A stretch of 64,000 nucleotides of DNA from an uncultured Bacilli bacterium (GTDB lineage Bacteria; Bacillota_I; Bacilli_A; RF39; UBA660), in contig CAKPEJ010000003.1 in NCBI GenBank assembly GCA_934149325.1, positions 11,142 through 75,141 of the forward strand, in the 5' to 3' direction. A model generated the notes under the pieces. That model was not told the origin of the DNA. It saw nothing but the letters and a program-made list of their open reading frames with translations, and did not search any database. The position numbers and the translations under genes are program-made. This document shows positions 1,754-27,340 of the stretch, piece after piece. Position 1 is the stretch's first letter; each line of letters opens with the position of its first letter.

Positions 1754-1754
1754 A

Positions 1755-2699: not shown

Positions 2700-2764
2700 A
2701 AAGTATTTAGATTTTATTCTAAATATTTTTTTTATCTTTGAATAAAATAGAGTGAGGTGTTTTA

Positions 2765-2998: not shown

Positions 2999-3023
2999 TG
3001 TATAATTAAGATAAGGAGGATGT

Positions 3024-4013: not shown

Positions 4014-4021
4014 AAAAAAGG

Positions 4022-4900
4022 CTATTTATATAGCTCTTTTTTTATTTTATCTCTATTTTCATTCATTATTGTAATATAATTTTTACCGTTCTTTTTATCA
4101 TCATCACTAATATTATTTAATGTATTTAATTCAACTATTTGTATACTTGGATATGCCTTTTTAATATTTTCTATATATTTATTATCTGTTTTTATATTGT
4201 TTGGTGTATAAATATATTTTATATTTCCTGATTCAATTAATTTTATTATATCATTATATGTTTTATCAGTAAGAGTTTCATCATCAAGTGAATATACACT
4301 AAGACCATATTTTTCTAAAAATTTAAAACTATCACTAGTAACAACAATACCTTTATATTTTGCATTTTCTATATCTTCTTTTATATCAGCATCTAATCTT
4401 GATAAGTCTAATTTTAATTTTTCATAATTTTCATCAATTTCTTTTTTTAGATAAGTACTTGTAATATATTCTTTTAATCCTGATTTAACATTTTGTGCGA
4501 TTGTCAATACATTTGATGGATTCATCCAAATTTCATCAACATCATATGTATATTCAATTCTTGCAGTGGCATCTATAATTTTTAAATTTTTATTTTTATT
4601 AATCATATCTACAATATAATCTTTTTCATTTGTAAGACCATTATATACAATTAAATCACTTTGTCCATAATCACTAATTTGTTTTTTTGTAAATTTGTAT
4701 TCATAAGGATTACTACCAGCAGGATACATACTGTTAACTTTAGCATTTCCTTTATATAAAGCTTCAGTAGTGTATTGAATAGGGTATAAACTTGTATAAA
4801 CTGTTATATCATCCATTGAATCTTTATTTATTCCTTCGCATCCAGAACATATGAATATAAGTAAAGCAATACTTAATAATTTAATTTTCTTTTTCATTTT
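4022..4900 (-). CDS. Lipoprotein, ZnuA/TroA-like metal ABC substrate-binding fold
   Basis: Lipobox FICSGC. Start chosen at MKKKIKLL with RBS GGGAGG. Architecture is ZnuA-like, but the usual HxWLDP metal motif is replaced (DEIWMNP). Confidence 0.5.
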   Translation of the reverse strand, partial: KMKKKIKLLSIALLIFICSGCEGINKDSMDDITVYTSLYPIQYTTEALYKGNAKVNSMYPAGSNPYEYKFTKKQISDYGQSDLIVYNGLTNEKDYIVDMINKNKNLKIIDATARIEYTYDVDEIWMNPSNVLTIAQNVKSGLKEYITSTYLKKEIDENYEKLKLDLSRLDADIKEDIENAKYKGIVVTSDSFKFLEKYGLSVYSLDDETLTDKTYNDIIKLIESGNIKYIYTPNNIKTDNKYIENIKKAYPSIQIVELNTLNNISDDDKKNGKNYITIMNENRDKIKKELYK

Positions 4901-5997: not shown

Positions 5998-7809
5998 ATG
6001 AAAAAAAGAAATATAGCAATAATTGCGCACGTTGACCATGGTAAAACAACACTTGTAGATCAATTATTAAAACAATCAGGAACTTTTAGAGACAATGAAG
6101 AAGTATCTGAAAGAGTAATGGATTCAAATGATATAGAAAGAGAAAGAGGTATAACAATACTTGCTAAACCAACAGCTATTAATTATAAAGATTATAGAAT
6201 AAATATATTAGATACACCTGGACATGCTGATTTTGGTGGAGAAGTAGAACGTATAATGCATATGGTAGATGGTGTATTACTTGTTGTTGATGCTTATGAA
6301 GGAACAATGCCACAAACTAAGTTTGTACTTAAAAAAGCATTAGAAGCAGGGCTAAAACCAATAGTTGTAATAAATAAAATAGATAAACCAACAGCAAGAC
6401 CTGAAGGTGTTATAGATGAATTACTTGATTTATTTATAGAACTTGGTGCTGATGAAGAACAATTAGAATTCCCAGTAGTTTATACTTCTGCAATTAATGG
6501 TACATCTAGTTTAGAATCTGATTTATCTACTCAACAGCATACTATGGATCCATTATTTAATTTGATTATAGATAATATTCCAGAACCTATAGAAGATATA
6601 ACAAGTCCACTACAATTCCAACCAGCATTACTTGATTATAATGACTATGTAGGTAGAATAGGTATTGGTAGAATAACTCGTGGTAAGATGAAATTAAATG
6701 AAATGGTATCATGTGTTAGATTAGATGGAAGCATAAAGAAGTTTAGAATACAAAAAATGTATGGTTATTTAGGTCTTAAAAGAATAGAAATTAATGAAGC
6801 AGAAGCAGGAGATATAGTTGCAATCGCAGGGTTACCTGATTTAGAAGTTGGAGAAACAGTTTGTACAGAAGGAAAAGAGGAAGCTTTAACTCCACTTAGA
6901 ATTGATGAACCAACTCTTCAAATGACATTTGGTGTTAATACATCTCCATTTGTTGGAAAAGAAGGTAAATTTGTAACAGCAAGTAAAATTGAAGAAAGAC
7001 TTAGAAAACAAGCAGAAAGTGATGTATCATTAAAAATTGAAACTAATGATGCTGAAAGCTGGATAGTATCAGGTAGAGGAGAACTTCACTTATCAATATT
7101 AATTGAAAATATGAGAAGAGAAGGATATGAACTTCAAGTATCAAAACCAGAAGTAATATTAAAGGAAATAGATGGTCAAATATGTGAACCATATGAAGAT
7201 GTTCAAATAGAAGTTCCAGAAGAAAATGTTGGTCCTGTAATAGAAGCTCTTGGTATGAGAGGCGGAACTATGGAAAACATGACTAATTTACCAGGTATAG
7301 TAAGACTTAATTATATCGTTCCATCAAGAGGTTTAATTGGATTTACAACAGATTTTATGACAATGACAAAGGGATTTGGTATTTTAAATCATACATTTAG
7401 AGAATATTTACCAAAAGTAGAAGCAGATGTTGGAGAAAGAAAACTTGGTGTATTAGTTTCAATGGAAAATGGTAAAACAACAGCGTATGCTTTAGGTGCT
7501 CTAGAAGATAGAGGTGTTATGTTTGTTGATCCTGGTGTTGAAGTATATGAAGGTATGATTGTTGGAGAAAACAATAGAGAAAATGACCTTGCTGTTAATG
7601 TTGTTAAAGGTAAAAACTTAACAAATACAAGAAGTTCTGGTAAAGATCATACTGTTGTTCTTAAGAAGACAAGACCAATAACATTAGAATATGCACTTGA
7701 ATATATAAATTCTGATGAATATGTAGAAGTTACACCAATAAACTTTAGAATGAGAAAGAAAATTTTAAATACAGAAGAAAGAAAGAAATTTGATGCTAGA
7801 AATAGATAA
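5998..7809 (+). CDS. typA: Translational GTPase TypA/BipA
   Basis: [36 protein letters not shown]. The true start is MKKRNIAI at 5998; the track ORF from 5821 is an upstream in-frame extension. An extended -10 (tgttataat) lies upstream. Confidence 0.9.
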
Positions 7810-9757: not shown

Positions 9758-9822
9758 TTGCAAAAAAATATAGGAAATAATATAATAATGGTAACCAGTG
9801 GGAAAAAGTGGTTGAATGTGGG
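9758..9822 (+). promoter_or_regulatory. mraZ promoter (TTGCAA-N17-TATAAT) followed by three MraZ-box-like GTGGG/GTGGT repeats at 10-bp phasing
   Basis: -35 at 9758-9763 and -10 at 9781-9786. GTGGG at 9798, GTGGT at 9808, GTGGG at 9818, each separated by 5 nt. Confidence 0.55.
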
Positions 9823-9831
9823 GGATGAAAA

Positions 9832-10260
9832 ATGTTTATGGGAGAGTTTCATCATAATATTGATGAAAAAGGTAGACTAATTATTCCATCAAAATTTAGG
9901 TATGAGTTAGGTGAAAAGTTTATAGTTACAAGAGGACTTGAAAACTGTTTATTTGTTTATCCTATGAATGATTGGAATAATATAATAAACAAATTAAAAG
10001 AACTTCCATTTACAAGTAAAGATGCTCGTACATTCATGCGTATGTTTTTATCAGGGGCCACTGAGTGTGAAATAGATCGTAACGGTAGAATCAATATATC
10101 ATCACCACTTATTAATTATGCTTCTTTAGAAAAAGAATGTGTAATAATAGGTGTTAATGACAGACTTGAAATATGGTCAAATGATAAGTTTGATGAATTC
10201 TTTAATACAAATATAGATAATTTTAGTGATATAGCGGAGAACTTATTTAATGCATGTTAG
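9832..10260 (+). CDS. mraZ: Transcriptional regulator MraZ
   Basis: [23 protein letters not shown]; duplicated MraZ domain. Confidence 0.9.
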
Positions 10261-11164
10261 TGTTTTATTAAATGAATCTATAGATGGATTAAATATTAAA
10301 GAAGATGGAATATATGTTGATTGTACGTTAGGATATGCTGGACACAGCTCACAAATACTAAAAAGAATAAAAAAGGGAAAATTATTCGCCTTTGATCAAG
10401 ATGGGGAAGCTATCAATTATAGTAAAAAGATTCTTGATCAAATTAATGGTAATTACGAAATTATTAATAGTAATTTTGTTAATATAAAATCTGAATTAAA
10501 TAAAAGGGGTATCTATAAAGTAGATGGTATTTTATTTGATTTAGGTGTATCAAGTCCACAACTTGATGAAGATTATAGAGGATTTAGTTATCATATGGAT
10601 GCTAAACTTGATATGAGAATGAATCAAAATCAAAAATTTAGTGCGTATGAACTTGTAAATGAATATTCACTTGATTCTCTTACAGAGATATTTTCAAAGT
10701 ATGGGGAAGAAAAATATTCAAGAAGTATTGCAAATGGGATAGTAAAAGCAAGGGAAAATAAAAAAATAGAAACAACTTTAGAACTTGTAGAAATAATAAA
10801 AAATAATGTTCCAGAAAAATATAAAAGAAATTCTCATCCGGCTAGAAAAGTTTTTCAAGCTATAAGAATAGAAGTAAATAAAGAACTTGATGTTTTAGAA
10901 AAAGCATTAAATGATGCAATAGAATTATTAAATCCTACTGGTAGAATATGTGTAATAACATTTCATTCACTAGAAGATAGAATATGTAAAAATAAATTTA
11001 AAAAATTAAGTGAAGTAGATAAAATGGTTAAAGGACTACCTATTATTCCAGATGAATATAAACCAGTTTTAAAAATAATAGGTAAATATAAACCAAGTAA
11101 AAAAGAATTAGAAGAAAATAATAGATCAAGAAGCTCAATATTAAGAGTAGCGGAAAAATTATAG
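10250..11164 (+). CDS. rsmH: 16S rRNA (cytosine1402-N4)-methyltransferase RsmH
   Basis: HVSVLL...[12 protein letters not shown]...[11 protein letters not shown]. Confidence 0.9.
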
Positions 11165-11179
11165 GAAAGAGATGATATT

Positions 11180-11485
11180 ATGAAAAAAAAGAATAAAAAG
11201 GAAAATACAATAAAATTTATTAACTTTGAAAAGAAATTTGAAATAATAGGTGCTTGTGTACTTATGATGATTTGGGTAATAAGTTTCTTTGCAAAAATAT
11301 CTCTTTCATCAATAAATGTAGAAGTAGAAAGATTAAGTAAAGAAGTTAAAGAACAGAATAAAACAAATCAAAGTTTGGCGATGAAAATTAACGAACTTGC
11401 ATCTTTAGAAAATATTCAATCAGTTGCAAATTCTGAAGGTTTAGCTTATAATAATGGTAATATAATAGTTGTGAACGAGCGATAG
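11180..11485 (+). CDS. ftsL: Cell division protein FtsL-like
   Basis: 101 aa, single TM plus coiled coil, positioned between rsmH and a PBP. Confidence 0.55.
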   Translation: MKKKNKKENTIKFINFEKKFEIIGACVLMMIWVISFFAKISLSSINVEVERLSKEVKEQNKTNQSLAMKINELASLENIQSVANSEGLAYNNGNIIVVNER

Positions 11486-11501: not shown

Positions 11502-13643
11502 ATGAAAAAAGAAAAAATAGTGAGTAAAATCCATATAAGTAGATTTGTATTCATATTTGGTCTTTTTTTCTTTTTGGTAATTATTGGAAGATTAATATAT
11601 TTAAATTTATCAGATAATATTGATGGTATTAATCTTCAGGAGTTTGCTAAAAATAGAAATACCACAAAACAAACATTATATGCAACAAGAGGAAGTATTT
11701 ATGATAAAAATGGTGAAACACTTGCTCAAACAATAGATTCTTATACAGTAATAGCGTATTTAGATAAAAGTAGAAGTAAAAATTCAAAAAAACCACTACA
11801 CGTTGTTGATAAAAGAAAAACAGCTCAAAAACTTGCTCCTATATTAAATATGACTGAAGAAAATATATTTAATTTACTTGATCAAAAAGGTTTATACCAA
11901 GTAGAACTTGGACCTGGTGGTAAAGGTCTTACTGAACTTCAAAAAGAACAAATAGAAAAATTAAAATTACCTGGAATAGATTTTATAAGTTCTACAAAAA
12001 GATATTATCCAAATCTTGATTTTGCTTCATATACTTTAGGATATGTAAAAACTAGTGAAGATGGTAAAATGGTTGGAGAAATGGGAATAGAAGCAAAATA
12101 TAACGAAGAGTTAACAGGTACTAACGGTTCTTTAGAATATCAAAAAGATGCTAATGGATATAAGTTAATTAATAGTCCGGAAATAAAAATAGATAAATTA
12201 GATGGTGTTAATATTTATTTGACACTTGATAGTAATATTCAGTTAATGGCAGAAAGAGCATTAAATAAAGCTTTTGAAGATTCAAAGGCAAAAAGTGCAT
12301 TATTAGTAGTAGCAGAAGCAAAAACTGGTAAAATAGTTGCATCTACTTCAAAACCTAGTTTTGACCCTAATATAAAAAATATTCAAAGTTATCTTGATCC
12401 ACTTTTGTCAGTCGCATTTGAACCAGGTTCAACAATGAAAACATATACATATATGACTACTATAGAAAAAGGTAATTACAATGGCGAAGATAAATATATG
12501 TCAGGAACAATGGATCTTAGTGGATATAGAATAAAAGATTGGAATAACTATGGTTGGGGTGAAATAACATATGATTATGGTTATATGCAGTCGTCAAATA
12601 TAGGTGTTGCAAATCTAATGCAAAAGTATATTACAAAAGAAGAATTACTTTCAATGTATAAAAAATTAGGTTTTGGATCAAAAACAGGAATTGAACTTCC
12701 TAATGAAACTACTGGAGAAATTTCATTTAAATATGACATAGAGGTTGCCAATGCATCATTTGGTCAAGGTATAAAAACTACACCAATTCAACATATTAAA
12801 GCTTTAACATCAATTTCAAATGATGGATATTTATTAAATCCTACAATAGTAGATAAAATAGTAGATTCAAATACTGGAGAAATTTTATATCAGTCAAAGA
12901 AACAAAAAGGTACAAAGTTAATAAAGAAAACAACAGTTGATAAATTAAAAGAATTAATGAATTCTGTTGTTAATAATCCAGAAGGTACAGGGGCAGGATA
13001 TCATTTAGATGGATATGATATTATTGGTAAAACAGGAACAGCACAGGTATATAATGAAAAAACTGGATCATATTATCCATCAGCAGTCGCATCTATAAAA
13101 TCTTTTGAAGGAATGTATCCTAAGGATAATCCAAAATACATATTTTATATAGCTGTAGAAAATGCTCAAGGTAATCCAATGCAAGAAACAATAAAATCTT
13201 TAGTTCAAGATATAGAAACATATTATAATTTATCTAATAATGGAACAAGTTCTAATAATATATATAAAATGGATAACTTTATAAATAAAAAAATAGACTT
13301 CGCAAAAGGAAGATTAGATGCTAATTCTATTACTTATGAAGTTATTGGTGATGGTGATAAAATAATAAATCAATATCCAAGTTCTGGTAAATCAGTTAAT
13401 GGTAAAGTAATATTAGTAACTAATAACAATAATAGAGTTATACCAAACATAACAGGATATTCAAGTAAAGAAGTTACAATCTTATGTGATATGTTAAATA
13501 TACCACTAGAAAAAACAGGTAATGGCTATGTTGCTAGTTATAATGTAGAAATGAATGAAGATGGAAGTATATTAAAAGTAAGTGTAATACTTGATCAAAA
13601 ATATAAAGATGTATTAGAGGTAGCTAATGAAAATTCTCAGTGA
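11502..13643 (+). CDS. Class B penicillin-binding protein (FtsI/SpoVD family) with C-terminal PASTA region
   Basis: N-terminal TM, dimerisation domain, STMK, SSN and KTGTA motifs, then a C-terminal PASTA-like extension. Confidence 0.85.
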   Translation: MKKEKIVSKIHISRFVFIFGLFFFLVIIGRLIYLNLSDNIDGINLQEFAKNRNTTKQTLYATRGSIYDKNGETLAQTIDSYTVIAYLDKSRSKNSKKPLHVVDKRKTAQKLAPILNMTEENIFNLLDQKGLYQVELGPGGKGLTELQKEQIEKLKLPGIDFISSTKRYYPNLDFASYTLGYVKTSEDGKMVGEMGIEAKYNEELTGTNGSLEYQKDANGYKLINSPEIKIDKLDGVNIYLTLDSNIQLMAERALNKAFEDSKAKSALLVVAEAKTGKIVASTSKPSFDPNIKNIQSYLDPLLSVAFEPGSTMKTYTYMTTIEKGNYNGEDKYMSGTMDLSGYRIKDWNNYGWGEITYDYGYMQSSNIGVANLMQKYITKEELLSMYKKLGFGSKTGIELPNETTGEISFKYDIEVANASFGQGIKTTPIQHIKALTSISNDGYLLNPTIVDKIVDSNTGEILYQSKKQKGTKLIKKTTVDKLKELMNSVVNNPEGTGAGYHLDGYDIIGKTGTAQVYNEKTGSYYPSAVASIKSFEGMYPKDNPKYIFYIAVENAQGNPMQETIKSLVQDIETYYNLSNNGTSSNNIYKMDNFINKKIDFAKGRLDANSITYEVIGDGDKIINQYPSSGKSVNGKVILVTNNNNRVIPNITGYSSKEVTILCDMLNIPLEKTGNGYVASYNVEMNEDGSILKVSVILDQKYKDVLEVANENSQ

Positions 13644-14118
13644 TAAAAGAAATATTATAATAATTCTTCTTATGTTTTCTATAATAGCTATGTCTATAGG
13701 TTATTTAAATTTATCTTCAGTTATTGGAATAGAAAGTCCAAAAGGAGAAAATCAAAAATTATGGGATATAAAAATAACTGATTTTAAAAAAATAAATTCT
13801 AGTGGTAATGTAAGAGAAGTACTAGAACCATCACATACAAATGAAACAGCAACATTTAATGTTGAATTTTCTGAAAATAAATCATATATTGAGTATATTA
13901 TTAAGATAAAAAATAGTGGAAGTATAGATGCTAAACTAAAAAGTATAGATTCAAGTTTTAAGGAAAATAATATAAATGTTCAAATAACTGATTTATATGT
14001 AGGGAGTACTTTAAAATCAGGCGAAGAAGTAAGCGCTATTGTTAAAGTTAGTTATGATAAATATGAAGAAGTAAAAAAGTGTATTGGAACAATAATTTTT
14101 AATTATGTACAAGCATAA
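13627..14118 (+). CDS. Secreted protein with SipW-cognate-like signal peptide (TasA/camelysin-like, divergent)
   Basis: N-terminal IIAMSIGYLNLSS hydrophobic segment similar to the two downstream paralogues. Confidence 0.4.
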   Translation: MKILSDKRNIIIILLMFSIIAMSIGYLNLSSVIGIESPKGENQKLWDIKITDFKKINSSGNVREVLEPSHTNETATFNVEFSENKSYIEYIIKIKNSGSIDAKLKSIDSSFKENNINVQITDLYVGSTLKSGEEVSAIVKVSYDKYEEVKKCIGTIIFNYVQA

Positions 14119-14127
14119 TGTAAAAAA

Positions 14128-14156
14128 ATGTATACTTTTAATGAATATAGTGACAA
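14128..14156 (+). promoter_or_regulatory. Promoter GTGACA-N17-TATAAT for the 14208 gene
   Basis: gtgacaataaaaaaaagctatgctataat. Confidence 0.5.
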
Positions 14157-14207
14157 TAAAAAAAAGCTATGCTATAATTAATTTATAAAATAAGGAGGAA
14201 ACAAGAA

Positions 14208-14714
14208 ATGAAAGACAAAAAAAATATATTAATAGGAGCATTACTATTTGCTGTAGTAGCTATGTCAGTAGGTTATGCAGCATTTGCAACAACTTTAAAT
14301 ATTAATGGTACTGCAACAATCGCAGGTGAATGGGATGTTGAAATTACAGGTATAACATCAGCATTTACAGGAAGTGCTGAAGATAAAACAGCACCAACGT
14401 TTACAGCAACAACTGCAACATTTGACGCAAAATTAATTGCGCCTGGTGATACAGCAACTTATACTGTAACTGTAGAAAATAAAGGAAGTATTGATGCATC
14501 TTTAGATTCAATTACTTTAACACCACAAGCTGATGGTTCAGATGCAATTATTTATACTGTTAAATCTCAACCAAATAAAAGTGATGTTTTAGCTGCTGGT
14601 GATACTACAACTGTGGTTATTGAAGCAAAATATGACCCAACAGTAACAACTGTTCCTGAAGTAAAAACAAAAACATTTACTGGCGTTCTTGAATATGTAC
14701 AAGCAAAAAAATAA
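14208..14714 (+). CDS. TasA/camelysin-like secreted protein with SipW-cognate-type signal peptide
   Basis: AMSVGYAAFATTLNINGTATIAG matches the TasA-type pattern (A-x-F ... N-x-x-G-T-x-x-I). It has its own promoter and terminator, as expected for a major subunit. Confidence 0.5.
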   Translation: MKDKKNILIGALLFAVVAMSVGYAAFATTLNINGTATIAGEWDVEITGITSAFTGSAEDKTAPTFTATTATFDAKLIAPGDTATYTVTVENKGSIDASLDSITLTPQADGSDAIIYTVKSQPNKSDVLAAGDTTTVVIEAKYDPTVTTVPEVKTKTFTGVLEYVQAKK

Positions 14715-14715
14715 A

Positions 14716-14752
14716 TCAAAAGTGAAGTGATGTTAATCACTCCTTTTTTTTA
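14716..14752 (+). terminator. Rho-independent terminator
   Basis: agtgatgttaatcact stem followed by T8. Confidence 0.6.
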
Positions 14753-14763
14753 GGAGGGGTATT

Positions 14764-15909
14764 TTGAATAGATTAAAAGTTAGAAGATTAAAAAATAAAT
14801 TTTCAAATAATAAAATTAAAATAATCCTTATTGTTTTGACAATATTTGTGTTTATGTTGGGGTCAGCATATGCTCTTTTAAATCAAAATTTTAAAATATC
14901 TGGAACAACTACTATTGGTGATGAAAGTATAAAATGTGATATAAATGTAGTTGGTTCTCTTTCAGTCGCATCTACATGGGCAGATAATGAAATAATTGAT
15001 TTAACAATTACTAATAATACAGGGGAAACTATAAATGGGTTTATTATAAAAATGAAGGTTCCTCTTGATACTAAAATAAAAGCTTATGATGGTTTTGAAT
15101 CAAATGGAGAAGAATATATAACTCCAAATGCAGATGGTATAGTAACGTTAGAAACATTAGAAGTAAGTGGAATGGAATGGTTTTATATGTTTCAACCAGG
15201 AGATAAAAAAATACAACTACATTTAACAATTCCAGGTATAACAACGGGTAATCCAATACTTCCTGAATGGATTACATTTAATGGTTGTAAAGTATATGGT
15301 TCTGGAACTATTACGCCTGATCCAGATGTTCCTTTGACAGGTCTTGAAATAAGTCCTAAAGAATATACAATGACAGTAGGTGAAACAGCACCATTAAATG
15401 TTATAAAAACTCCAAGTAATGCTGATGCAGATATTAAATGGTCAAGTAGTGATAATTCAGTTGTATCTGTTTCATCTTCTGGGCAAATAACTGCTTTAAA
15501 AGAAGGAACAGCTATAATTACAGCAAAAAGTGGTAATATATCAGCTACATCAACAATAACTGTAAATGCAAATATTAATCCACCAACTACTGATGGTGTT
15601 GAATTTGTATATTCTATGCCTAATACTTGGGGAGACGTAAATAATGGATATTCTGCTGATTTTACAATAAAAATAACAAATAATACCGATAATAATATTA
15701 ATTCAATAAAATTTACGTTAGGTATGCCAAGTGGTATGAAATATACAATATGGACTGGTAATACTAGCATAGATGGTAATGACTTTACTTATTCTTATAC
15801 GTTAAATAAAGGAGAATCAGTTACAATTTATGGACAATTTAAAATGCCAGCAGGATATGAAATTAATGATTATAAAAATCCAAATATAACAAATATAATA
15901 GTAAATTAA
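14764..15909 (+). CDS. SipW-cognate signal peptide protein with Big_2 (bacterial Ig-like) domain
   Basis: GSAYALLNQNFKISGTTTIG is close to the TasA consensus NNTFAAGTLDL. Big_2-like segment: ISPKEYTMTVGETAPLNVIKTPSNADADIKWSSSDNSVVSVSSSGQITALKEGTAIITA. Confidence 0.5.
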   Translation: MNRLKVRRLKNKFSNNKIKIILIVLTIFVFMLGSAYALLNQNFKISGTTTIGDESIKCDINVVGSLSVASTWADNEIIDLTITNNTGETINGFIIKMKVPLDTKIKAYDGFESNGEEYITPNADGIVTLETLEVSGMEWFYMFQPGDKKIQLHLTIPGITTGNPILPEWITFNGCKVYGSGTITPDPDVPLTGLEISPKEYTMTVGETAPLNVIKTPSNADADIKWSSSDNSVVSVSSSGQITALKEGTAIITAKSGNISATSTITVNANINPPTTDGVEFVYSMPNTWGDVNNGYSADFTIKITNNTDNNINSIKFTLGMPSGMKYTIWTGNTSIDGNDFTYSYTLNKGESVTIYGQFKMPAGYEINDYKNPNITNIIVN

Positions 15910-15918
15910 GGAGTAAAT

Positions 15919-17091
15919 ATGAAAAGGGTTAAATTTAATATATTTCATTTAGTTATATTACTATATTTAATATTTTCTATTTTTATAAATAAATTAATAG
16001 ATTTAAAAACATATAATTTGATTATAAATCCAATTTTCTGGTTAATTATTTCTATTTCAATTTATATAAGAACAGGAAATAATCATGGAAGATTTTCAAA
16101 ATTAAATGAAAACGAAAAAACAATTTTAATAACAACTTTATTTTACCTAATAATAAACTTTATGAGTGGACTTATTTTTGGTTATACAAGTAATCCATAT
16201 TCAAATAAAGTAATTCCATTTTTAACAAACTTTTGGCAAATAGTAATAGTTATAATGGGAATAGAATATACAAGAAGTTATGTAATTAATGAAAATAAAA
16301 ATAATAAACTTTTTGTTATTCTATTTACTATTATATTTATCTTATTAGAAATAAATTTTTCTAAACTATTTTCTAGTATAAATGATAGAGAAGAATTATT
16401 TAAATATGTATCATCAACTTTGTTACCTCTTGTTTTTGGTAATATACTTTATACATATTTAACTATAAAAGGGTCTTATAAACTTGTATATATTTATAGA
16501 GTTATAGTGGAAGTAACATTTTTAATAGTTCCAATATTACCAAATTTTGATTGGTTTATGATTGGTATTAGAGGTATAATTGTTCCTGCTATTATTTATT
16601 TAGTATTAAAATATACATCAAATTATAAAGCTGTTAGAGCTAGATCTAATGGTAGAAAAAAACAAAATCCACTTATATATGTTCCAGTATTTTCTATAAT
16701 CTTGATTTTTGTATTATTTATGGCTGGAATATTCATTTATGAACCTATAGCGGTATTATCTAATAGTATGAATCCTGTTTTTTATAGGGGAGATGTGGTA
16801 ATATATCGTAAAGTTGACAATAATAAATTGAAAAATATTAAAAAGTATAATATAATTATTTATAGTAAGGATGGACAGGCTGTTGTTCATAGAGTAGTAG
16901 ACAAATATATAAAAGATGGTGAAACATATTTTATAACTAAGGGTGACGCTAATATATCTAATGATTTAAATCCTGTAAGTGAAAGTCAGGTAATAGGGGT
17001 ATATCAGTTATCTATTAAATACATTGGTTATCCATCTGTTTGGTTAAATCAAATATTTAATTATGAAAAACCTAATGTAGAAATAAAGTAA
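15919..17091 (+). CDS. sipW: SipW-type (ER/archaeal-type) signal peptidase I domain fused to an N-terminal ~270-aa polytopic membrane domain
   Basis: C-terminal region has AVLSNSMNPVFYRGDVVIY (SxSMxP Ser box), VVHRVV (His box) and FITKGDANISND (box E). The N-terminal ~270 aa form multiple TM helices of unknown function. Confidence 0.7.
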   Translation: MKRVKFNIFHLVILLYLIFSIFINKLIDLKTYNLIINPIFWLIISISIYIRTGNNHGRFSKLNENEKTILITTLFYLIINFMSGLIFGYTSNPYSNKVIPFLTNFWQIVIVIMGIEYTRSYVINENKNNKLFVILFTIIFILLEINFSKLFSSINDREELFKYVSSTLLPLVFGNILYTYLTIKGSYKLVYIYRVIVEVTFLIVPILPNFDWFMIGIRGIIVPAIIYLVLKYTSNYKAVRARSNGRKKQNPLIYVPVFSIILIFVLFMAGIFIYEPIAVLSNSMNPVFYRGDVVIYRKVDNNKLKNIKKYNIIIYSKDGQAVVHRVVDKYIKDGETYFITKGDANISNDLNPVSESQVIGVYQLSIKYIGYPSVWLNQIFNYEKPNVEIK

Positions 17092-17102
17092 AGGTGATAT
17101 GA

Positions 17103-18158
17103 GTGAGTAAGCAAAGTAGTGCAAAAAAAAGACTTATATTGAAAACTTGGGTTAGAGTAGTATTATTTATTACTCTAAGTTTTTTGCTTGCTTTATCAAT
17201 TTTTGTCGTATATAAAGGAAAAAATCCATCAAAAGATAATATTGATTCATATAATTATAGAACAAATTCAAATATAGATTATAAAGTTTATTTATTTGAA
17301 AATAATTTCTATGAAGAAAAATATTTGGGAATGAATAAGCAATATACAAGTGCACTTATAGATTATGTAGATATAGATTTTGATTATTTATTTAATGGTT
17401 CTGGAAAAGCAAATATAAATTATACATATGATATAACCGCAACTATAATTGGTGAATATGAAAATACAAGTAATGGTAAAGATGAAATATGGAAAAAGAA
17501 ATATACATTACTTGAAAAACAAAATAAAAATGTTTTAGATACAACTTCATTTGATATTCATCAAAATGTAAAAATTAAATATGGTACATATAATAATATA
17601 GTTAATGATTTTAAAACAAGATTTAAACTTGCGATAGATGCATATTTAAATGTAAAATTAACAGTAAAATATGATAGTAATATAATTAATACAAAATCAG
17701 ATGTAAAAGATACAGATGTACTTGAAATAAATATACCACTTAATTCTAGTACTATAAAAATTACGCCTAATTATACAAAAGCAACTAGTAAAAAGTTATC
17801 AAAAGATGATACTATAATTGAAGATCCTGTAACTATTAGAACAGGATATACTATGCTTACAATTACAATAATAATGTTTGTGTTGTTAATTCCAAAATTA
17901 TTTACTTCACATAAAAGTTATTATTTAAAACAACTAAATAAAATAATGAAAAATTATAGTGAAATAATAGTTGAAGTAACAACACCACTTAATTTTGATA
18001 ATTTAATTACTTTGGATATTAAAACATTTGATGATATGGTTGATATAGAAGAAGAGATTAAGTCACCAATATTATATTATGAAATAGAAGAAAATAAAGA
18101 ATCTTGGTTTATAATTGTTACTGAAAAATATATGTATAGATATATATTAAAGAAATAA
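17103..18158 (+). CDS. Hypothetical bitopic membrane protein
   Basis: TM at residues ~20-40 and ~245-265; no recognisable motifs; sits in the same gene string as sipW. Confidence 0.3.
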   Translation: MSKQSSAKKRLILKTWVRVVLFITLSFLLALSIFVVYKGKNPSKDNIDSYNYRTNSNIDYKVYLFENNFYEEKYLGMNKQYTSALIDYVDIDFDYLFNGSGKANINYTYDITATIIGEYENTSNGKDEIWKKKYTLLEKQNKNVLDTTSFDIHQNVKIKYGTYNNIVNDFKTRFKLAIDAYLNVKLTVKYDSNIINTKSDVKDTDVLEINIPLNSSTIKITPNYTKATSKKLSKDDTIIEDPVTIRTGYTMLTITIIMFVLLIPKLFTSHKSYYLKQLNKIMKNYSEIIVEVTTPLNFDNLITLDIKTFDDMVDIEEEIKSPILYYEIEENKESWFIIVTEKYMYRYILKK

Positions 18159-18258: not shown

Positions 18259-18753
18259 GTGTGTTATTTAGATGGAGAATATAATCAAATTGTTTATGAT
18301 ATACTTAATAACGAAGAATTTAAAAAATTAAAAAATATTGAACATCATGGTATGACTAGATATGATCATTCACTTAGAGTTTCATATTATTCATATGTTC
18401 TTGCTAAAAAGATAGGTCTTGATTATGTATTAGTTTCAAGAGCAGGATTGCTTCATGATTTCTTTTTTAGTGAAGATGATAGAACAAAAAAAGATAGATT
18501 AGTATCAACATTTGTTCATCCTAAATTTGCGGTTGAAAATTCACTAAAATACTTTTCAATAACAGAAAAAGAAAAAAATATAATAGAATCTCATATGTTT
18601 CCTTTATATAAGACTTTACCTAAATATAGTGAAAGTTGGCTTGTTAGTATAGTTGATAAAGTAGTAGCGACATATGAATTTAGTCAAAAATTTAAATTTA
18701 AACTTGATTATGCAACTAATTTAATGATTTTGTTTATTATAAGCAAACTTTAA
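18259..18753 (+). CDS. HD-domain phosphohydrolase
   Basis: HHGMTRYDHSLRVSYYSY...LLHDFF HD motif. Confidence 0.65.
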   Translation: MCYLDGEYNQIVYDILNNEEFKKLKNIEHHGMTRYDHSLRVSYYSYVLAKKIGLDYVLVSRAGLLHDFFFSEDDRTKKDRLVSTFVHPKFAVENSLKYFSITEKEKNIIESHMFPLYKTLPKYSESWLVSIVDKVVATYEFSQKFKFKLDYATNLMILFIISKL

Positions 18754-18764
18754 ATTAGTTTTTT

Positions 18765-18812
18765 TATTTATCAAATATAGGACACCAATACCAAAAGCTG
18801 TTGTTGCTAACT
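18765..18812 (+). other. Putative attL-type site of a large serine recombinase (inverted relative to attR)
   Basis: In gene orientation: B arm ...GCAACAACAGC, core TTTTGG, P' arm TATTGGTGTCCTATATTTGATA. The P' arm is the inverted counterpart of the P arm at 29776-29792. Confidence 0.6.
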
Positions 18813-20007
18813 CAACTGGTCCAACTTTATCTAAATCAAATAAAATACCTGTTGCTTCACCATTTAAATCTATTCCAGTTTTTTTACCAAATCCAAATTT
18901 ATTTATATAACTAAATAATTTTTCTTTTCCAAGTCTTTGACCTAATGCAACAAATCCAGGGTTACATGAATTTTCAACAACTTGAAGAAAAGTTTGAGAT
19001 CCATGACCACCACTTTTCCAACATTTTATTTTTGCATTCGCAACTCTTACACTACCACCATCATAAAAATGTTCTTCAGTTAAATTAACAAGATTTTCTT
19101 CTAAAGATGATGCAAGAGTAATTATTTTGAATGTTGATCCTGGTTCATAATTCATCCAAATAGGTAAATTCCTATTAATTTCTTCTAATGAGTATTTTTG
19201 ATAATTCGCAGGATCAAAATTAGGTCTTGAACTCATCGCTAGTATTTCACCAGAGTTAGGATCCATCGCAATCGCAAGTGCATGTTCAGGATTATATTTA
19301 GTAACTACATTATCAAGTTCTCTTTCAACAGATAATTGTATATCATTATTTATTGTTAACTCTATATTAATTCCATCAGCTGGTTCTTCATATATTTCAT
19401 TTAGTTTTAATTTATTACCCTTAGCGTCTGAAAAATATTTTATAGATCCATAAGCACCTGTCAAATATTTATTATATTGTAATTCAAGTCCTGATAATCC
19501 TTGATTGTCTATTCCTACATATCCTAAAACATGTGATAGGTTTTTGTCATAAACATAATTTCTTTTTGATTCTTTTACTAAATAAACTCCATCTATTTTT
19601 AAAGCATTTATCTTATCTGCAACTTCAAAAGGTAATCTTCTTCCTTCTGGATGTACTCTTTCTATAGATGTCTTTTTATTTACGTGTTTACTCATTTCTT
19701 CTTCATCAATATTTAATATTTCAGCAAGTTTCTTTGTTGCAGTTTTTTTATCCTTTATTTGATTTGGTATTAAAACTAAACTTGTAGTTGTAACATTATT
19801 CGCAAGAACAGTTAAATTTCTGTCGTAAATAATACCTCTATTTCCTTCAATAGGTAAGTTTCTACTCCATAAATCATTTGAGAGAGTTGTAAGTTTTTTA
19901 TATTCAATTACTTGTATATATAAAACTTTTAATAATACTATTACAAACAACATAATTACTATTACAAAAAATAATCTAATTTTTAAATGAATATCTTTAA
20001 CAAACAC
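18786..20007 (-). pseudogene. Class B PBP (PBP2/SpoVD-like), 5' segment of a gene split by an 11-kb invertible segment
   Basis: N-terminal TM, dimerisation domain, STFK and SCN motifs. The homology ends at ...ELATTAFG and then runs into unrelated codons (IGVLYLINKK*). The missing KTG-containing remainder lies at 29782-30489 on the other strand. Confidence 0.8.
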
Positions 20008-20116
20008 ATGTCCACCTCTAATAAAATATATGTAATTATAATTCTGATATGAAAATAAAAAAATCTTTACTTGAAGGCGTTTTTATGTATAATAATATGT
20101 TAGGTGAGGATTATAT

Positions 20117-21115
20117 ATGAAAATAGAAATGATGGAATACTTATCAAATAAAATAAGTGATGTTAATATACAAAAAAAGGTTATAGAAGTTTTAGATGGA
20201 ATGAATTTTTTAGAAACAAAAGAAATTGTTAATGCATTAGAAGAATGTGATTTTAATGAATATGCGATTGATTTAGTTATTAATGAAAATGTATTAAAAA
20301 CAAGAACAGTAGAAGAACAAATAAGATTAATAGAAGTTTTAAAAGACAGTAATTATAACTATAATGTATATAATATATATAATATAATAACAAATCCTTA
20401 TGTATTAAAAAATAGAACAGTAGAAGATCAAATAAGATTAATAGAAGTTTTAAAAGAAAATGATTATAATGAAGATGTTTATGAAATAATAACAAATCCT
20501 TATGTATTAAAAAATAGAACAGTAGAAGATCAAATAAGATTAATAGAAGTTTTAAAGAATAGCGATTATAACTATGATGTTTATGAAATAATAGTAGATT
20601 TACAATTATTAAAAAATAGAACGATAGAAGAACAAATAAAACTAATTGAAGTATTAAAAGAATGTGATTTTGAAGATAGAGTATGGAGAGTAGCAGTATC
20701 TTCAAATGTATTAGAAAATAGAACGATAGAAGAACAAATAAAACTAATTGAAGTATTAAAAGAATGTGATTTTGAAGATAGAGTATGGAGAGTAGCAGTA
20801 TCTTCAAATGTATTAGAAAATAGAACGATAGAAGACCAAATAAAACTAATAGAAGTTTTAAAGAATAGTGATTATAATAAGAATGTTTATGAAATAATAA
20901 TAGATTCAGAAATTTTAAAAAACAGAACAATGGAAGAACAAATAAAGATGATTGAGTTATTGAAAATACAAAAGGTATATCATGATGAAAATATTAATAA
21001 TATATTACCATTAAAAGATTTTAAAAGTGATTTAAAAGAATTAAAGAGTAAAATGGGAGAAGATGTTGATATAAAAAGTGATACAATGGTAAAAGTGTAT
21101 AATCCAAAAGAGTAA
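20117..21115 (+). CDS. Tandem-repeat protein (~40-aa repeats NRT[IV]E[ED]QI[RK]LIEVLK...)
   Basis: Seven or eight repeats. Two adjacent 60-nt-periodic blocks (20641-20760 region) are identical at the nucleotide level. Confidence 0.4.
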   Translation: MKIEMMEYLSNKISDVNIQKKVIEVLDGMNFLETKEIVNALEECDFNEYAIDLVINENVLKTRTVEEQIRLIEVLKDSNYNYNVYNIYNIITNPYVLKNRTVEDQIRLIEVLKENDYNEDVYEIITNPYVLKNRTVEDQIRLIEVLKNSDYNYDVYEIIVDLQLLKNRTIEEQIKLIEVLKECDFEDRVWRVAVSSNVLENRTIEEQIKLIEVLKECDFEDRVWRVAVSSNVLENRTIEDQIKLIEVLKNSDYNKNVYEIIIDSEILKNRTMEEQIKMIELLKIQKVYHDENINNILPLKDFKSDLKELKSKMGEDVDIKSDTMVKVYNPKE

Positions 21116-21222
21116 GCAATTAACTTACTTTTTTTACATTAAAATTAACATTTTTTGTTATTCTATTTACATTTTTACTTATTTTGTTATATAATAATTT
21201 AGTCGAAAGAGGAGTGAATAAA

Positions 21223-22635
21223 ATGCAAAAGACAAAAATGATTTGTGGAATAGGACCAGCAACACAAGACTGGGAAGTATTTAAAAAATTAGTAGAAAAT
21301 GGAATGAATGTTGTTCGTGTTAATTTTTCTCATGCTACTGATGAAGAAAGAAGAATTGATGAAGAATTAGCAATAAGAGCAAGAAAAGAATTAGGTAAGA
21401 ATGTAGCAATTTTATTTGATACAAAAGGACCAGATTTAAGAACTTGTGAATTTGAAAACAATGAAATTGAATTTGTTGAAGGAAATACTATTAGAATTGT
21501 TAGAGAATCAGTTATAGGTAACAAGGAAAGAATTAGTTTTAATTTTCCTCAAGTAATTGATAATTTAAAAGTTGGAACAATGATATTATTAAATGATGGA
21601 TTTGTAAGACTTGAAGTTATTTCAGTTGAAGAAGATGGAGTTACTTGTAAAATATTAGATAGTGCAAATTTAATAAGTAGACGTGGAACTAATATTCCAG
21701 GTGTAGACTTAAATATACCATTTATATCAGAAGCAGATGAAGCTGATATTAAATATGCTTGTGAACATGATGGAGATTATCTTGGAATATCATTTGTTTC
21801 AAGTGCTGATGATGTAAGAGCAGCTAGAAAATTACTTGAAAAATATGGTAAACCAGATATGCAAATTTTATCTAAAATTGAAACTGCAAAAGCAATTGAA
21901 AATATAGATGAAATTATAGATGAAACAGATGGTATTATAGTAGCTAGAGGTGACTTAAGTGTTGAAGTACCATTTATAGAAGTACCAGTTTTACAAAAAG
22001 AAATTTTAAGAAAATGTCGTGAAAAAGGAAAAATTTGTATTGTAGCTACTGAAATGCTTAAGAGTATGTGTAAAAATTCAAGACCTACAAAGGCTGAATT
22101 AACAGATGTTTCAACAGCTGTATTTGATGGAGCAGATGCTGTATGGTTAAGTGATGAAACTACAATTGGTGCTCATCCAGATTTAGCTTCTCAATATTTA
22201 GGAGAAATTTGTGGAGTTGCAGAAAAACATTATAATGAATATGCTACAAGATATAATGTGGAAACTACACATGATGTACACGATATAATTGCTCAAGGTG
22301 TTACAAAAGCAGCTGATGATTTAGATGTTAAATTAATAGTTGCATCTACAATGAGTGGATTTACAGCACAAAAAATTAGTAATTTAAAACCAGATGCATT
22401 TATTTTAGCACCAGTACCAAATGAAAAAATCGCAAGAAGATTAGTTCTTAATTGGGGAGTATATCCAGTTGTTGTTCCTGAGTATACATCTACTGATGAA
22501 GTAGTTTCAATTGGTCTTGAAAAAGCAAAAGAATTTATGGATTTAAAACAAGGAGATAAAGTAATTATAACTGGAGGTTTCCCTAATACAGGAGACAAAG
22601 TTACAAACTTTATGAAAATAGAAGAAATAAAATAA
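21223..22635 (+). CDS. pyk: Pyruvate kinase
   Basis: MQKTKMICGIGPA, NFSHA, TKGPDLR, MVARGDLSVE. RBS AGAGGAG. Confidence 0.9.
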   Translation: MQKTKMICGIGPATQDWEVFKKLVENGMNVVRVNFSHATDEERRIDEELAIRARKELGKNVAILFDTKGPDLRTCEFENNEIEFVEGNTIRIVRESVIGNKERISFNFPQVIDNLKVGTMILLNDGFVRLEVISVEEDGVTCKILDSANLISRRGTNIPGVDLNIPFISEADEADIKYACEHDGDYLGISFVSSADDVRAARKLLEKYGKPDMQILSKIETAKAIENIDEIIDETDGIIVARGDLSVEVPFIEVPVLQKEILRKCREKGKICIVATEMLKSMCKNSRPTKAELTDVSTAVFDGADAVWLSDETTIGAHPDLASQYLGEICGVAEKHYNEYATRYNVETTHDVHDIIAQGVTKAADDLDVKLIVASTMSGFTAQKISNLKPDAFILAPVPNEKIARRLVLNWGVYPVVVPEYTSTDEVVSIGLEKAKEFMDLKQGDKVIITGGFPNTGDKVTNFMKIEEIK

Positions 22636-22737
22636 TATTTTAATAGGCACTTTAAAAAGTGTCTATTTTTTCTTGACTTAAGATATATAAGTGGTATAAT
22701 TGTTTTTGTTAGTTACCTAACAAAATAGAGGGATGTT

Positions 22738-23175
22738 ATGAAAAAGTTAATAGGGTATGAAATAAAAAACTTAAATAATATGATAGAAAGAAAAATAATA
22801 AATGTTCATAAGCCATTAAAAAGTGAATGTATTATAACACCAATACAGGTAAAAATAATAGAATATATTATGGAGAATAATAGTAATACAGTCTATCAAA
22901 GGGATGTAGAAAAATATTTAAATTTAAGAAGATCTACTATTTCTGGTATTTTGCAAACAATGGAGAAGAACAATATTATTATAAGAGTTAATTCAAAGGT
23001 TGATGCAAGAAGTAAAGAGATAAAATTAACTGATAGATGCTTATCAAAGGTTAATTTTTTAAAGGGAAAAACAATTGATTTTGAAAATAAAATTAAGTGT
23101 GGTATTTCAAATGAAGAATTAGATGTCTTTTTTTCTGTTATAGATAAGATAAAAAATAATGTTGAAAAATTATAG
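22738..23175 (+). CDS. MarR-family transcriptional regulator
   Basis: 145 aa with a winged-HTH pattern (ITPIQVKIIEYI...RDVEKYLNLRRSTISGILQTMEKNNII); TTGACT-N16-TATAAT promoter upstream. Confidence 0.7.
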   Translation: MKKLIGYEIKNLNNMIERKIINVHKPLKSECIITPIQVKIIEYIMENNSNTVYQRDVEKYLNLRRSTISGILQTMEKNNIIIRVNSKVDARSKEIKLTDRCLSKVNFLKGKTIDFENKIKCGISNEELDVFFSVIDKIKNNVEKL

Positions 23176-23202
23176 GTAACTATGTAATGAAAGGATGATA
23201 AT

Positions 23203-24966
23203 ATGTTAAAGTTATTTAAAAATTTTAATAAAAAAGATTATGGTGTAATATTATTATCTTTAATTTTAATTGTTATTCAAGTTTGGTTAGAATTAAAGAT
23301 GCCAGATTATATGTCTGAGATAACTGTTTTAGTTCAAACTGAAGGAAGTAAAATGAAGGATATATTGATGAATGGTGGATATATGCTTTTATGTGCTTTT
23401 GGAAGTTTAATTTCATCAGTTTTTGTTGGATATTTAGCTGCAAAACTTTCTTCTGTTTTTTCTATGAAAACAAGAAAAAAATTATTTAACAAAGTTGAAG
23501 ATTTAAGTACAAGTGAAGTTAAGAATTTTTCATGTAGTAGTTTAATTACTAGGACTACAAATGATATAACACAAATAGAAATGCTTATAGCTATGGGACT
23601 TCAATTAATGATTAAGGCCCCAATAACAGCAGTTTGGGCAGTTTCTAAAATAGTTAATAAAAATTTCGAATGGAGTGTTATTACAGGAGTTGCAGTACTA
23701 ATATTATTAACAGTAATAGGAATATTAACTTTAATAGTTATACCTAAGTTTAAAGTTGTTCAAAAACTTACTGATAAATTAAATAGTGTTACTAGAGAAA
23801 ATTTAACAGGTATAAGAGTGGTTAGAGCTTTTAATGCAGAAAAATATCAAGAAGATAAGTTTGAAGATGTAAATAACAAACTTACAAATCAACAACTATT
23901 TAACCAAAGAACATTTTCTATAATGTCACCAACAATGTATTTAGTTATGAATTTTTTAACACTATCTATTTATTTTGTAGGTGCTTATTTAATAAAAGAT
24001 TCTTTATTAGTTGATAAGTTATCTTTATTTGGAGATATGGTTGTATTTTCATCTTATGCAATGCAAGTTATAATGTCATTTTTAATGCTTGCGATGATAT
24101 TTATGATGCTTCCAAGGGCATCAGTTTCAGCAAAACGTATTAATGAAGTATTAGATACAGATATAAGTGTAAAAGATGGCACTTTAGATAATCCTAAAAC
24201 TGATGAAGTTGGAACTGTTGAATTTAAAAATGTATCATTTAAATATCCAGATGCTGAAGAATATTTAATAAATAATATTTCATTTAAAGCAGAAAAGGGA
24301 GAGGTAGTTGCATTTATTGGATCAACTGGTTCGGGAAAATCAACTTTAATAAATTTAATCCCAAGATTTTATGATGCGACTGATGGTGAGATATTAGTTG
24401 ATGGAATAAATGTAAAGGATTATAAATTTGAAAGTTTATATAACAAATTAGGTTGTGTTCCACAAAAGGCCGTTATGTTTGATGGAACTGTTAATTATAA
24501 TGTTTCTTATGGCGATAATGGTAAAGGTAAAAAAAGTGAAAAGACAATAAAAGAGGCAATAGAAGTTGCTCAAGGAACAGAATTTGTTCTTAAAATGGAT
24601 AATAAATATAGTTCACATATTTCACAAGGTGGAAGTAATATATCAGGTGGACAAAAACAAAGACTTGCAATCGCAAGAGCAATTGCGCGTAATCCAGAAA
24701 TATATATATTTGATGATTCTTTTTCTGCTCTTGACTACAAGACTGATTCAGTATTAAGAAAAGAATTAAAAAAATATACAAAGAATGCTACTACATTGAT
24801 TGTAGCGCAAAGAATAGGTACTATAATGAATGCAGATAAGATTATTGTACTTGATAATGGTGAGTGTGTTGGAATGGGAACACATAAAGAATTACTTAAA
24901 AATTGTGAAGTTTATAAGCAAATAGCTTTATCACAATTGTCAAAGGAGGAACTTGAAAATGAATAG
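23203..24966 (+). CDS. ABC exporter, fused permease-ATPase (half of a heterodimeric multidrug-type exporter)
   Basis: Six TM segments plus Walker A GSTGSGKST, signature LSGGQKQR and Walker B IYIFDDSFSALD. Confidence 0.85.
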   Translation: MLKLFKNFNKKDYGVILLSLILIVIQVWLELKMPDYMSEITVLVQTEGSKMKDILMNGGYMLLCAFGSLISSVFVGYLAAKLSSVFSMKTRKKLFNKVEDLSTSEVKNFSCSSLITRTTNDITQIEMLIAMGLQLMIKAPITAVWAVSKIVNKNFEWSVITGVAVLILLTVIGILTLIVIPKFKVVQKLTDKLNSVTRENLTGIRVVRAFNAEKYQEDKFEDVNNKLTNQQLFNQRTFSIMSPTMYLVMNFLTLSIYFVGAYLIKDSLLVDKLSLFGDMVVFSSYAMQVIMSFLMLAMIFMMLPRASVSAKRINEVLDTDISVKDGTLDNPKTDEVGTVEFKNVSFKYPDAEEYLINNISFKAEKGEVVAFIGSTGSGKSTLINLIPRFYDATDGEILVDGINVKDYKFESLYNKLGCVPQKAVMFDGTVNYNVSYGDNGKGKKSEKTIKEAIEVAQGTEFVLKMDNKYSSHISQGGSNISGGQKQRLAIARAIARNPEIYIFDDSFSALDYKTDSVLRKELKKYTKNATTLIVAQRIGTIMNADKIIVLDNGECVGMGTHKELLKNCEVYKQIALSQLSKEELENE

Positions 24967-27280: not shown

Positions 27281-27282
27281 TG

Positions 27283-27312
27283 AATATGCAAATGCATATT
27301 CTTTTTTTTATT
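27283..27312 (+). terminator. Rho-independent terminator after the ABC operon
   Basis: gaatatgcaaatgcatattc stem followed by a T-run. Confidence 0.6.
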
Positions 27313-27340
27313 TAATATATTGTATAAGAAAGGAAATTTT

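Follow-up and report, generated by a model that had tools for sequence, protein, structure and literature searches.

Gene content and layout of the module

The 64,000-nt window analysed here, i.e., the whole stretch of contig CAKPEJ010000003.1 from an uncultured Bacilli bacterium to which all positions refer, carries at 13627-18158 five closely spaced and co-directional open reading frames, named p1 to p5 in their order and all on the + strand, which we interpret, with a probability of about 0.78, as an AbpX-type (TasA-superfamily) fibre operon with its own multi-pass signal peptidase. The first gene, p1 (13627..14118; 163 aa), encodes an AbpX-like minor subunit and is a paralog of p2 (14208..14714; 168 aa), the candidate major fibre subunit, and p3 (14764..15909; 381 aa, TTG start) encodes a candidate tip or nucleator subunit. 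They are followed by the genes for a dedicated signal peptidase I (SPase I), p4 (15919..17091; 390 aa), and for a DUF5305 membrane protein, p5 (17103..18158; 351 aa, GTG start). The G+C content of the module (~25%) is the same as that of the flanking DNA and thus gives no compositional sign of recent import. Directly upstream lies a pbp2x-like gene (11502-13643), itself downstream of mraZ, rsmH and ftsL, whose stop is overlapped by the start of p1 over 17 nt (13627-13643); in a relative, locus L001 from an Erysipelotrichaceae metagenome-assembled genome, the p1-type gene overlaps the pbp2x stop by 8 nt (7445-7452). The overlap in both lineages implies that the translation of a fibre subunit is coupled to that of the mraZ-rsmH-ftsL-pbp operon.

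The first-pass annotation had credited p2 with a strong promoter and a terminator of its own, which holds only in part. The p1-p2 spacer contains a sigma-70-like promoter (14150..14178, +; GTGACA, 17-nt spacer, TG-extended TATAAT), a consensus match only, which with 11 of 12 positions is the best intergenic match, but promoter-like matches in the region were no commoner than in shuffled AT-rich sequence. A ribosome-binding site (AAGGAGG, 14192-14198, +) precedes p2. Behind p2 stands a weak terminator-like hairpin (14726..14751, +) of 6 bp (14726-14741) followed by U8 (14744-14751), with a minimum free energy of -11.8 kcal/mol and a z-score of -1.25, which probably attenuates transcription. Separate transcription signals for p2 are therefore plausible but not strong, and no Rfam element was found in 9000-31000.

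The three consecutive secreted proteins carry the N-terminal motifs as they had first been quoted, and p1, p2 and p3 have in common a signal anchor followed by an N-terminal strand motif. In p2 the signal anchor spans residues 1-24 and ends at the predicted cleavage site VGYA↓AF (the arrow marks the cut), after which the mature N-terminus reads A-F-A-T-T-L-N-I-N-G-T-A-T-I; residues 25-40 form an amphipathic candidate donor strand, with F2, L6, I8, G10, A12 and I14 of the mature protein in a pattern that parallels W2, L6, L8, A10 and I12 of AbpX. The AlphaFold2 model of p2 (mean confidence, pLDDT, 91) consists of a transmembrane (TM) helix (4-24), an unstructured segment (25-43) and an eight-strand beta-sandwich (44-165), so that the monomer has an unstructured N-terminal extension before the sandwich, as reported for AbpX. 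We retrieved 214 metagenomic homologs of p2, none of them named. Alignment of 53 homologs shows no variation at Y23, W42, F72, Y85, N91, G93, A97 and Q165, and the N-terminal consensus of the family is KKNILIGALL..VV.M.VGYAAFATTL.INGTA.I...WDVEI. Among 197 family members the entropy was 0.52 bits at positions -3 to -1, 1.39 bits over the next sixteen residues and 2.03 bits in the beta-sandwich body, and the positions conserved after the cut are the even ones (L+6, I+8, G+10, A+12, I+14). Such alternating conservation would suit a strand with one buried face rather than a disposable signal peptide. Mature p2 is acidic (pI 4.32, D+E 12.5%; family median pI 4.17), as is AbpX (pI 4.05, D+E 14.7%).

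The other two secreted proteins depart from p2 in different parts of the chain. The paralogy of p1 and p2 extends over the full length (BLASTP E 2e-14, 29% identity), and the N-terminal motif of p1 is degenerate (GY-L↓NLSS), with Leu at -1 where the family has Ala or Ser. In p3, instead, only 37 N-terminal columns match the pilin profile, i.e., the signal anchor and the strand (hhalign, E 5e-5); the predicted cut is SAYA↓LLNQNFKISGTTTIG, after residue 37, and the donor-strand-like segment comes without a pilin-type acceptor body. It is followed by an unassigned domain, by the Big_2 domain noticed at first reading (192-266, 53 bits) and by a CBM49/CBM2-like carbohydrate-binding module (CBM; 281-354, CBM49 23.9 bits); no paralogy was detectable between the two domains other than Big_2, and residues 188-352 match PDB entry 7quz, 'Beta-1,3-glucanase bglH', with E 1e-10. 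At least 10 further loci have a gene of p3 type in the same place, after the pilin gene and before that of the peptidase. In some species pilin paralogs form arrays, with four in tandem in locus L065 (4969-7676), and locus L020 encodes proteins of 492 aa (766-4895, 9817-11295) in which the pilin signal-and-strand motif is followed by a long extension. The arrays and the extended proteins suggest extensive diversification of the subunits.

Relationship to AbpX loci

The AbpX query was the sequence given in the supplement of a January 2026 preprint (bioRxiv 10.64898/2026.01.04.697558), together with its five database relatives. Starting from P. abyssi AbpX, a word-index search reached no further than these five close relatives, and an exhaustive profile search with a second iteration was needed to go beyond them: the profile search yielded 1441 relatives at E<=1e-3, and an iterated hidden Markov model (HMM) built on 151 AbpX relatives matched p2 over its full length with 56.1 bits (E 3.5e-10 in a search space of 1.84 billion sequences), p1 with 22 bits and p3 with 17 bits at the N-terminus only. 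In the reverse direction, the p2-family HMM matched 135 of 154 AbpX-profile hits. Alignment of the two families with hhalign gave a probability of 95.4% (E 1.7e-8) over 148 columns, with GLTYA↓QWSETLSLSATIS of AbpX and VGYA↓AFATTLNINGTATI of the p2 family in register. To this homology are added a Sec/SPase I signal with a predicted cut and, behind it, an amphipathic N-terminal strand with an aromatic residue at +2, a low pI with an acid-rich composition, an adjacent SPase I with about ten TM helices, and a DUF5305 gene, a minor subunit and a tip gene in the locus, all of them features of the AbpX clade. Two donor-strand residues behind the cut, which the preprint regards as characteristic, differ, on the other hand, between the two families. 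At mature position +2 the p2 family has F (35/51) or L (16/51), as opposed to W in 144 of 145 AbpX-profile hits; at +4 it has T (30/51), Q (15/51) or, once in 51, E, as opposed to D/E in 110 of 145. p2 itself has T at +4, and the acidic residue that coordinates calcium in AbpX is missing.

The module had been called TasA/camelysin-like at first reading. A TasA-type fibre module with a dedicated ER/SipW-type peptidase is indeed what the locus resembles, but the curated models do not lead to TasA itself. Run against PF12389 (Peptidase_M73), p1-p3 gave no match at E<=0.1 and 7 of 53 relatives matched weakly (best E 3.4e-4); the N-terminal 60-68 residues of p1-p3 gave no match to TIGR04088 at E<=10, although the HMMER filters may drop very short weak matches. 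Searches of the PDB sequences with phmmer and profiles, starting from p2 and its family, recovered neither TasA nor AbpX, whose entries 9SJ2 and 9RHP are possibly absent from the set. The family is that of the AbpX clade of the TasA superfamily; by curated cut-offs, the module falls outside TasA/camelysin itself, SipW and TIGR04088.

The peptidase leads to the same loci. p4 carries the SNSM, HRV and TKGDAN boxes, and the catalytic Ser and His anticipated for the product of the gene at 15919 are present on alignment, S283, H324, D343 and D349 being invariant in 51 homologs. Its C-terminal 140 residues pass TIGR02228 (archaeal/endoplasmic reticulum (ER)-type SPase I) with 89.1 bits over a cut-off of 51.85, while the SipW equivalog NF046067 gave 56.2 bits, far below its cut-off of 190. 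The enzyme is of the ER/archaeal type (S26B, Sec11-like), with Ser-His(-Asp) rather than Ser-Lys, and among solved structures human SEC11A and SEC11C come closest (Foldseek 3.3e-5; profile 3.2e-18). The AlphaFold2 model (pLDDT 85.8) shows nine long helices and a short C-terminal one, arranged as an eight-helix polytopic N-domain (1-245), a TM anchor and the catalytic domain. A multi-pass N-terminal extension of about 270 aa with no recognisable family had been pointed out, and at ~250-270 aa it stands: the N-domain (~245-270 aa) matched nothing in Pfam, NCBIfam or the PDB, and no Pfam family was found in it in any of the 51 homologs. Its conserved polar residues are N104, E116xxR119 and E144. 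CPBP and exosortase were considered as identities of this domain and dropped, as no His or Cys is conserved.

Homologs of p4 number 676, of ~385-390 aa; the 204 relatives in species-representative genomes belong mostly to uncultured gut Bacilli, 'Tenericutes' and Clostridia. In P. abyssi, the neighbour of abpX (L085:6876-8018) codes for a peptidase of 380 aa whose alignment with p4 extends over 356 columns and takes in the polytopic domain (BLASTP 7e-16; hhalign 98.3%), with the E-x-x-R-S motif retained. With a homolog of this kind in P. abyssi and hundreds in gut Bacillota, the architecture of p4, at first taken for a non-standard SipW fusion, is the standard one for AbpX loci. The further membrane protein noticed at 17103-18158, p5, belongs to DUF5305 (PF17231; 56.5 bits, cut-off 29, profile positions 1-217 of 217) and has two hydrophobic spans, 19-37 and ~245-268; the predicted topology is a TM helix (19-37), an outside domain, a second TM helix (~245-268) and a cytoplasmic tail. 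We regard p5 as a candidate accessory subunit of the peptidase.

Synteny was examined in 80 species-representative loci from species-level gut genomes. In ~74 of them the peptidase gene directly follows a p2-like gene (in three of the remainder the peptidase sits at a contig edge), in ~76 a DUF5305 gene comes directly after it, and the order pilin, peptidase, DUF5305 is kept in ~74. The arrangement of the window is also found in many independent gut metagenome assemblies. Three CAG:710-like genomes (L050 9971-12265; L063 9971-12261; L073 1836-4120) have the peptidase-DUF5305 pair without an adjacent pilin, its neighbours being der (EngA) and spoIVA; either the pair can stand without its presumed substrates, or these are encoded elsewhere. 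An HD protein encoded downstream was dropped as a part of the module, being present in one of the 80 loci and there far from it.

The position of the module in the dcw cluster is, instead, a local matter. The insertion between two penicillin-binding protein (PBP) genes of this cluster, as the first-pass annotation had it, is true only loosely and of this lineage only. The downstream 'second PBP' (18721-20007) lies on the opposite strand and holds the N-terminal two-thirds of spoVD only; the C-terminal third is found at ~29799-30489 beside mraY, so that ~12 kb, occupied by other genes, lie between the module and mraY. When the other loci were checked for the same insert, dcw genes adjoined the module in one of the 80, L001, downstream of whose module unrelated genes follow, with no PBP and no mraY. 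The dcw location is therefore peculiar to the lineage of the window.

A putative donor-strand fibre and its alternatives

In the mechanism that we propose, p1-p3 would enter the membrane via Sec and be held there by their conserved signal anchors, until p4, helped by p5, would cut p2 after VGYA (residue 24) and p3 after SAYA (residue 37), both cut sites being predicted by analogy with TasA (TWA↓AF) and AbpX (TYA↓QW). The amphipathic N-terminal strand so freed would insert into the open groove of the next p2 beta-sandwich, and donor-strand complementation would build a chaperone-free polymer, for which the separate promoter and the weak terminator of p2 would provide an excess of the major subunit. 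Since p3 has a donor strand without an acceptor body, together with Big_2 and CBM-like domains, it would act at the distal end as a cap or nucleator, a glycan-binding tip comparable to TapA or TafC. At the other end p1 may stay uncleaved in the membrane as the cell-proximal base; this protein has an acceptor body but Leu at -1, similar variants occur in L001 and L006, and we consider the role tentative, with slightly worse than even odds. With no acidic +4 residue to bind calcium, p2 probably assembles without calcium gating, unlike P. abyssi AbpX.

The eight-helix domain of p4 could have a larger part in this process, as a membrane platform for fibre assembly, instead of a passive anchor, that recognises the conserved signal anchors of the subunits and couples cleavage to strand insertion, i.e., as a peptidase-polymerase, with the p1 base co-translated with the division operon. 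The intramembrane E116-x-x-R119, common to the archaeal enzyme, could belong to such a platform, and K5, N6, I9, L12, M19 and Y23 of the anchor could be the residues recognised. We hold this extension to be unlikely. If it were true, it would represent a new pilus-assembly pathway common to archaea and gut Bacillota, and the co-translation of p1 would, in this lineage, put fibre bases at division sites.

Several results speak against an AbpX-type fibre, or at least for caution. The direct similarity of p2 to AbpX is low (BLASTP E 0.97) and the narrow HMM of five AbpX sequences scores p2 at 7 bits only, which makes the p2 family a divergent branch; missing, too, are the acidic +4 residue, which defines the calcium-mediated assembly of AbpX, and Trp +2, with Phe or Leu in its place. 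Pfam gave for p2 only sub-threshold matches to generic beta-sandwich families (DUF7507, DUF11, CARDB). A Foldseek comparison of the p2 model with the PDB was weak, with Ig-like domains, pilins and TasA among the matches (best E 4.6e-3); the comparison with TasA suggested at first reading does return TasA 8aur, but with E 0.033. Donor-strand complementation is here inferred from homology alone, and the role given to p1 rests on one residue class in three lineages.

The same weak matches leave some room for another explanation, in which the small proteins would be ordinary, non-polymerising beta-sandwich proteins of the surface (CARDB/DUF11-like adhesins or wall-associated proteins), p4 a specialised or housekeeping maturation peptidase, and no fibre would be formed. 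Curated libraries offer for p2 only weak matches to DUF7507, DUF11, HYDIN-Ig and CARDB, AbpX itself is labelled 'CARDB domain-containing protein' in UniRef, and Foldseek returned no significant match of p2 to a fibre subunit. Simple secretion, however, does not explain why the segment after the cut is more conserved than the body and in an alternating pattern, nor why p3 keeps the strand segment on an unrelated body. p2 is moreover homologous to a protein with a solved donor-strand fibril structure, and the strict linkage to a dedicated peptidase and a DUF5305 protein recalls the Tat-fimbriae (Tafi), where fibres depend on the peptidase. We therefore consider the absence of a fibre improbable. 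Pilins of other kinds (type IV pilin-like, pseudopilin or sortase-dependent subunits) are hardly credible and were rejected: the N-terminal hydrophobic helix only superficially resembles a class III signal peptide, and the weak match of p1 to the archaeal pilin UpsA model NF046073 (20.6 bits, cut-off 130) lies in the C-terminal beta domain and not at the N-terminus. A G↓F/L...E5 prepilin motif is missing, neither a prepilin peptidase or assembly ATPase nor a sortase or LPXTG motif was found in the locus, and the protease linked to the subunits belongs to the signal peptidase I type.

A fibre of the same type could also be specific to sporulation or to the spore surface, tied to the neighbouring spoVD and dcw genes, rather than serve vegetative cells in biofilms or adhesion. 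TasA was first described as a spore-associated protein, the module of the window sits between the pbp2x-like gene and the split spoVD, and the peptidase-DUF5305 pair stands beside spoIVA in the three CAG:710-like genomes. Against such a tie, dcw or PBP genes adjoin the module in only one of the 80 other loci, the promoter of p2 is sigma-70-like rather than sigma-E/K-like (weak evidence), and p1 appears translationally coupled to the vegetative division operon. A spore-specific role seems to us as improbable as the absence of a fibre. Overall, the AbpX-type fibre remains the reading that we prefer, and the module, which is coherent, adds a divergent bacterial representative to the AbpX branch of the TasA superfamily, itself described only recently, and not a new category.

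The split spoVD gene, significance and known systems

The spoVD gene downstream of the module deserves a description of its own. Its N-terminal piece (405 codons) runs leftward from 20007 to 18791 (-), and its C-terminal piece (230 codons) runs rightward at 29799-30489 (+), directly upstream of mraY and ftsW; the two pieces, into which an inversion has split the gene, stand at the ends of an 11-kb segment (18786-29799) with junctions near 18791 and 29799. Inversion of this segment in silico rejoins an in-frame spoVD of 635 aa that scores 743 bits with the SpoVD equivalog (cut-off 688) over model positions 4-636. The two junctions have the core CTTTTGG in common, their non-PBP flanks are imperfect inverted repeats of each other, and the junction of the inverted form would read ...GCTTTTGGCCAAGGAG... 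The segment encodes a large serine recombinase (27478-29043), a pyruvate kinase, a MarR-type regulator and two ABC exporters. The arrangement looks like gene reconstitution by inversion, unlike the known sporulation intervening elements, which act by excision. Among the matches to 23 metagenome contigs, all 10 places listed have the split form; exact-match scans of the JGI metagenomes found neither the spoVD junction nor the sequence common to both orientations, the organism being absent from that collection. At 20117-21115 (+) lies a gene for a 332-aa protein of tandem ~34-aa repeats (...NRT(V/I)E(D/E)QI(R/K)LIEVLK...) with no family match, which varies greatly between strains of the same species (L081, L082, L086, L089): the product has 227, 264, 503 or 540 aa, or is replaced by those of four tandem genes (265-367 aa).

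A hyperthermophilic archaeon is so far the only source of characterised AbpX-type fibres, the bacterial relatives being known from bioinformatics alone. The divergent branch described here is frequent among the uncultured low-GC Bacilli that live in human and animal guts (204 peptidase relatives in species-representative genomes, 214 metagenomic p2 homologs); it is probably independent of calcium and, in the window, may be provided with a glycan-binding tip. This points to a widespread and unstudied organelle of adhesion or biofilm formation in gut commensals, and the compactness of the five-gene system offers an opportunity to address the roles of the polytopic signal peptidase and of DUF5305 by genetics.

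Among the known systems is that of SipA/LepA of Streptococcus pyogenes (PDB 4n31), third among the Foldseek matches of p4. SipA has the signal-peptidase fold and is needed for pilus polymerisation, but, devoid of catalytic residues, it acts together with sortases and on pilins of the LPXTG kind, whereas p4 keeps Ser, His and Asp in a locus without sortase. In the Tat-fimbriae of Haloarcula hispanica (tafA-G), DUF5305 proteins pair with dedicated signal peptidases (PMC11821415; PMC12337348), and deletion of TafD abolishes both the processing of TafA and the fibres (PMC11821415). The module resembles this system in that a DUF5305 protein (TafG in Tafi) accompanies a dedicated SPase I (TafD) and in the presence of several related subunits, for which tip, adapter, core and anchor roles have been proposed; the subunits of Tafi are, however, Tat substrates, and in TafD the catalytic domain is N-terminal and the TM helices number four.

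With the tapA-sipW-tasA operon of Bacillus subtilis the module has in common an ER-type Ser-His peptidase dedicated to fibre subunits and the kind of cut site (TWA↓AF as compared to GYA↓AF). The module would also be comparable to this operon in the formation of fibres by N-terminal donor-strand exchange and in an accessory protein that supplies the first strand (TapA in B. subtilis). Differently from p4, SipW lacks a polytopic domain, and p4 fails the SipW equivalog as p1-p3 fail PF12389 and TIGR04088; TasA is a larger jelly-roll protein, and the tasA operon has no DUF5305 gene.

The closest likeness is with the AbpX loci themselves. P. abyssi AbpX forms a fibril by donor-strand complementation that is stabilised by calcium, and archaeal and bacterial AbpX loci encode, besides minor subunits that resemble AbpX, a tip protein, an SPase I with ten TM helices and a DUF5305 accessory protein (bioRxiv 10.64898/2026.01.04.697558); such fibril loci have been reported also in Nat Commun 2025 (PMC12518558). 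Several differences set the module apart. The p2 family has F/L at +2 where AbpX has W, and T/Q at +4 where AbpX has the calcium-coordinating D/E; the neighbourhood of the module lacks the SLH or LPXTG anchor, the sortase, the histidine kinase and the cyclic di-GMP gene of the bacterial AbpX loci listed in the preprint; the host is a low-GC uncultured gut Bacilli member, the operon abuts division genes, and the tip carries Big_2 and CBM-like domains. The correspondence with the AbpX loci is nonetheless broad: the subunits are homologous and acidic in both, with Y-A↓ followed by an aromatic residue and a matching strand register, the polytopic N-domains of the dedicated SPase I enzymes (~380-390 aa) are homologous, and the gene set comprises a DUF5305 accessory protein, a minor subunit and a tip gene. 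This kind of system was first described in 2025-2026 and its gene set has already been reported for AbpX loci, to which the locus described here is a divergent addition.

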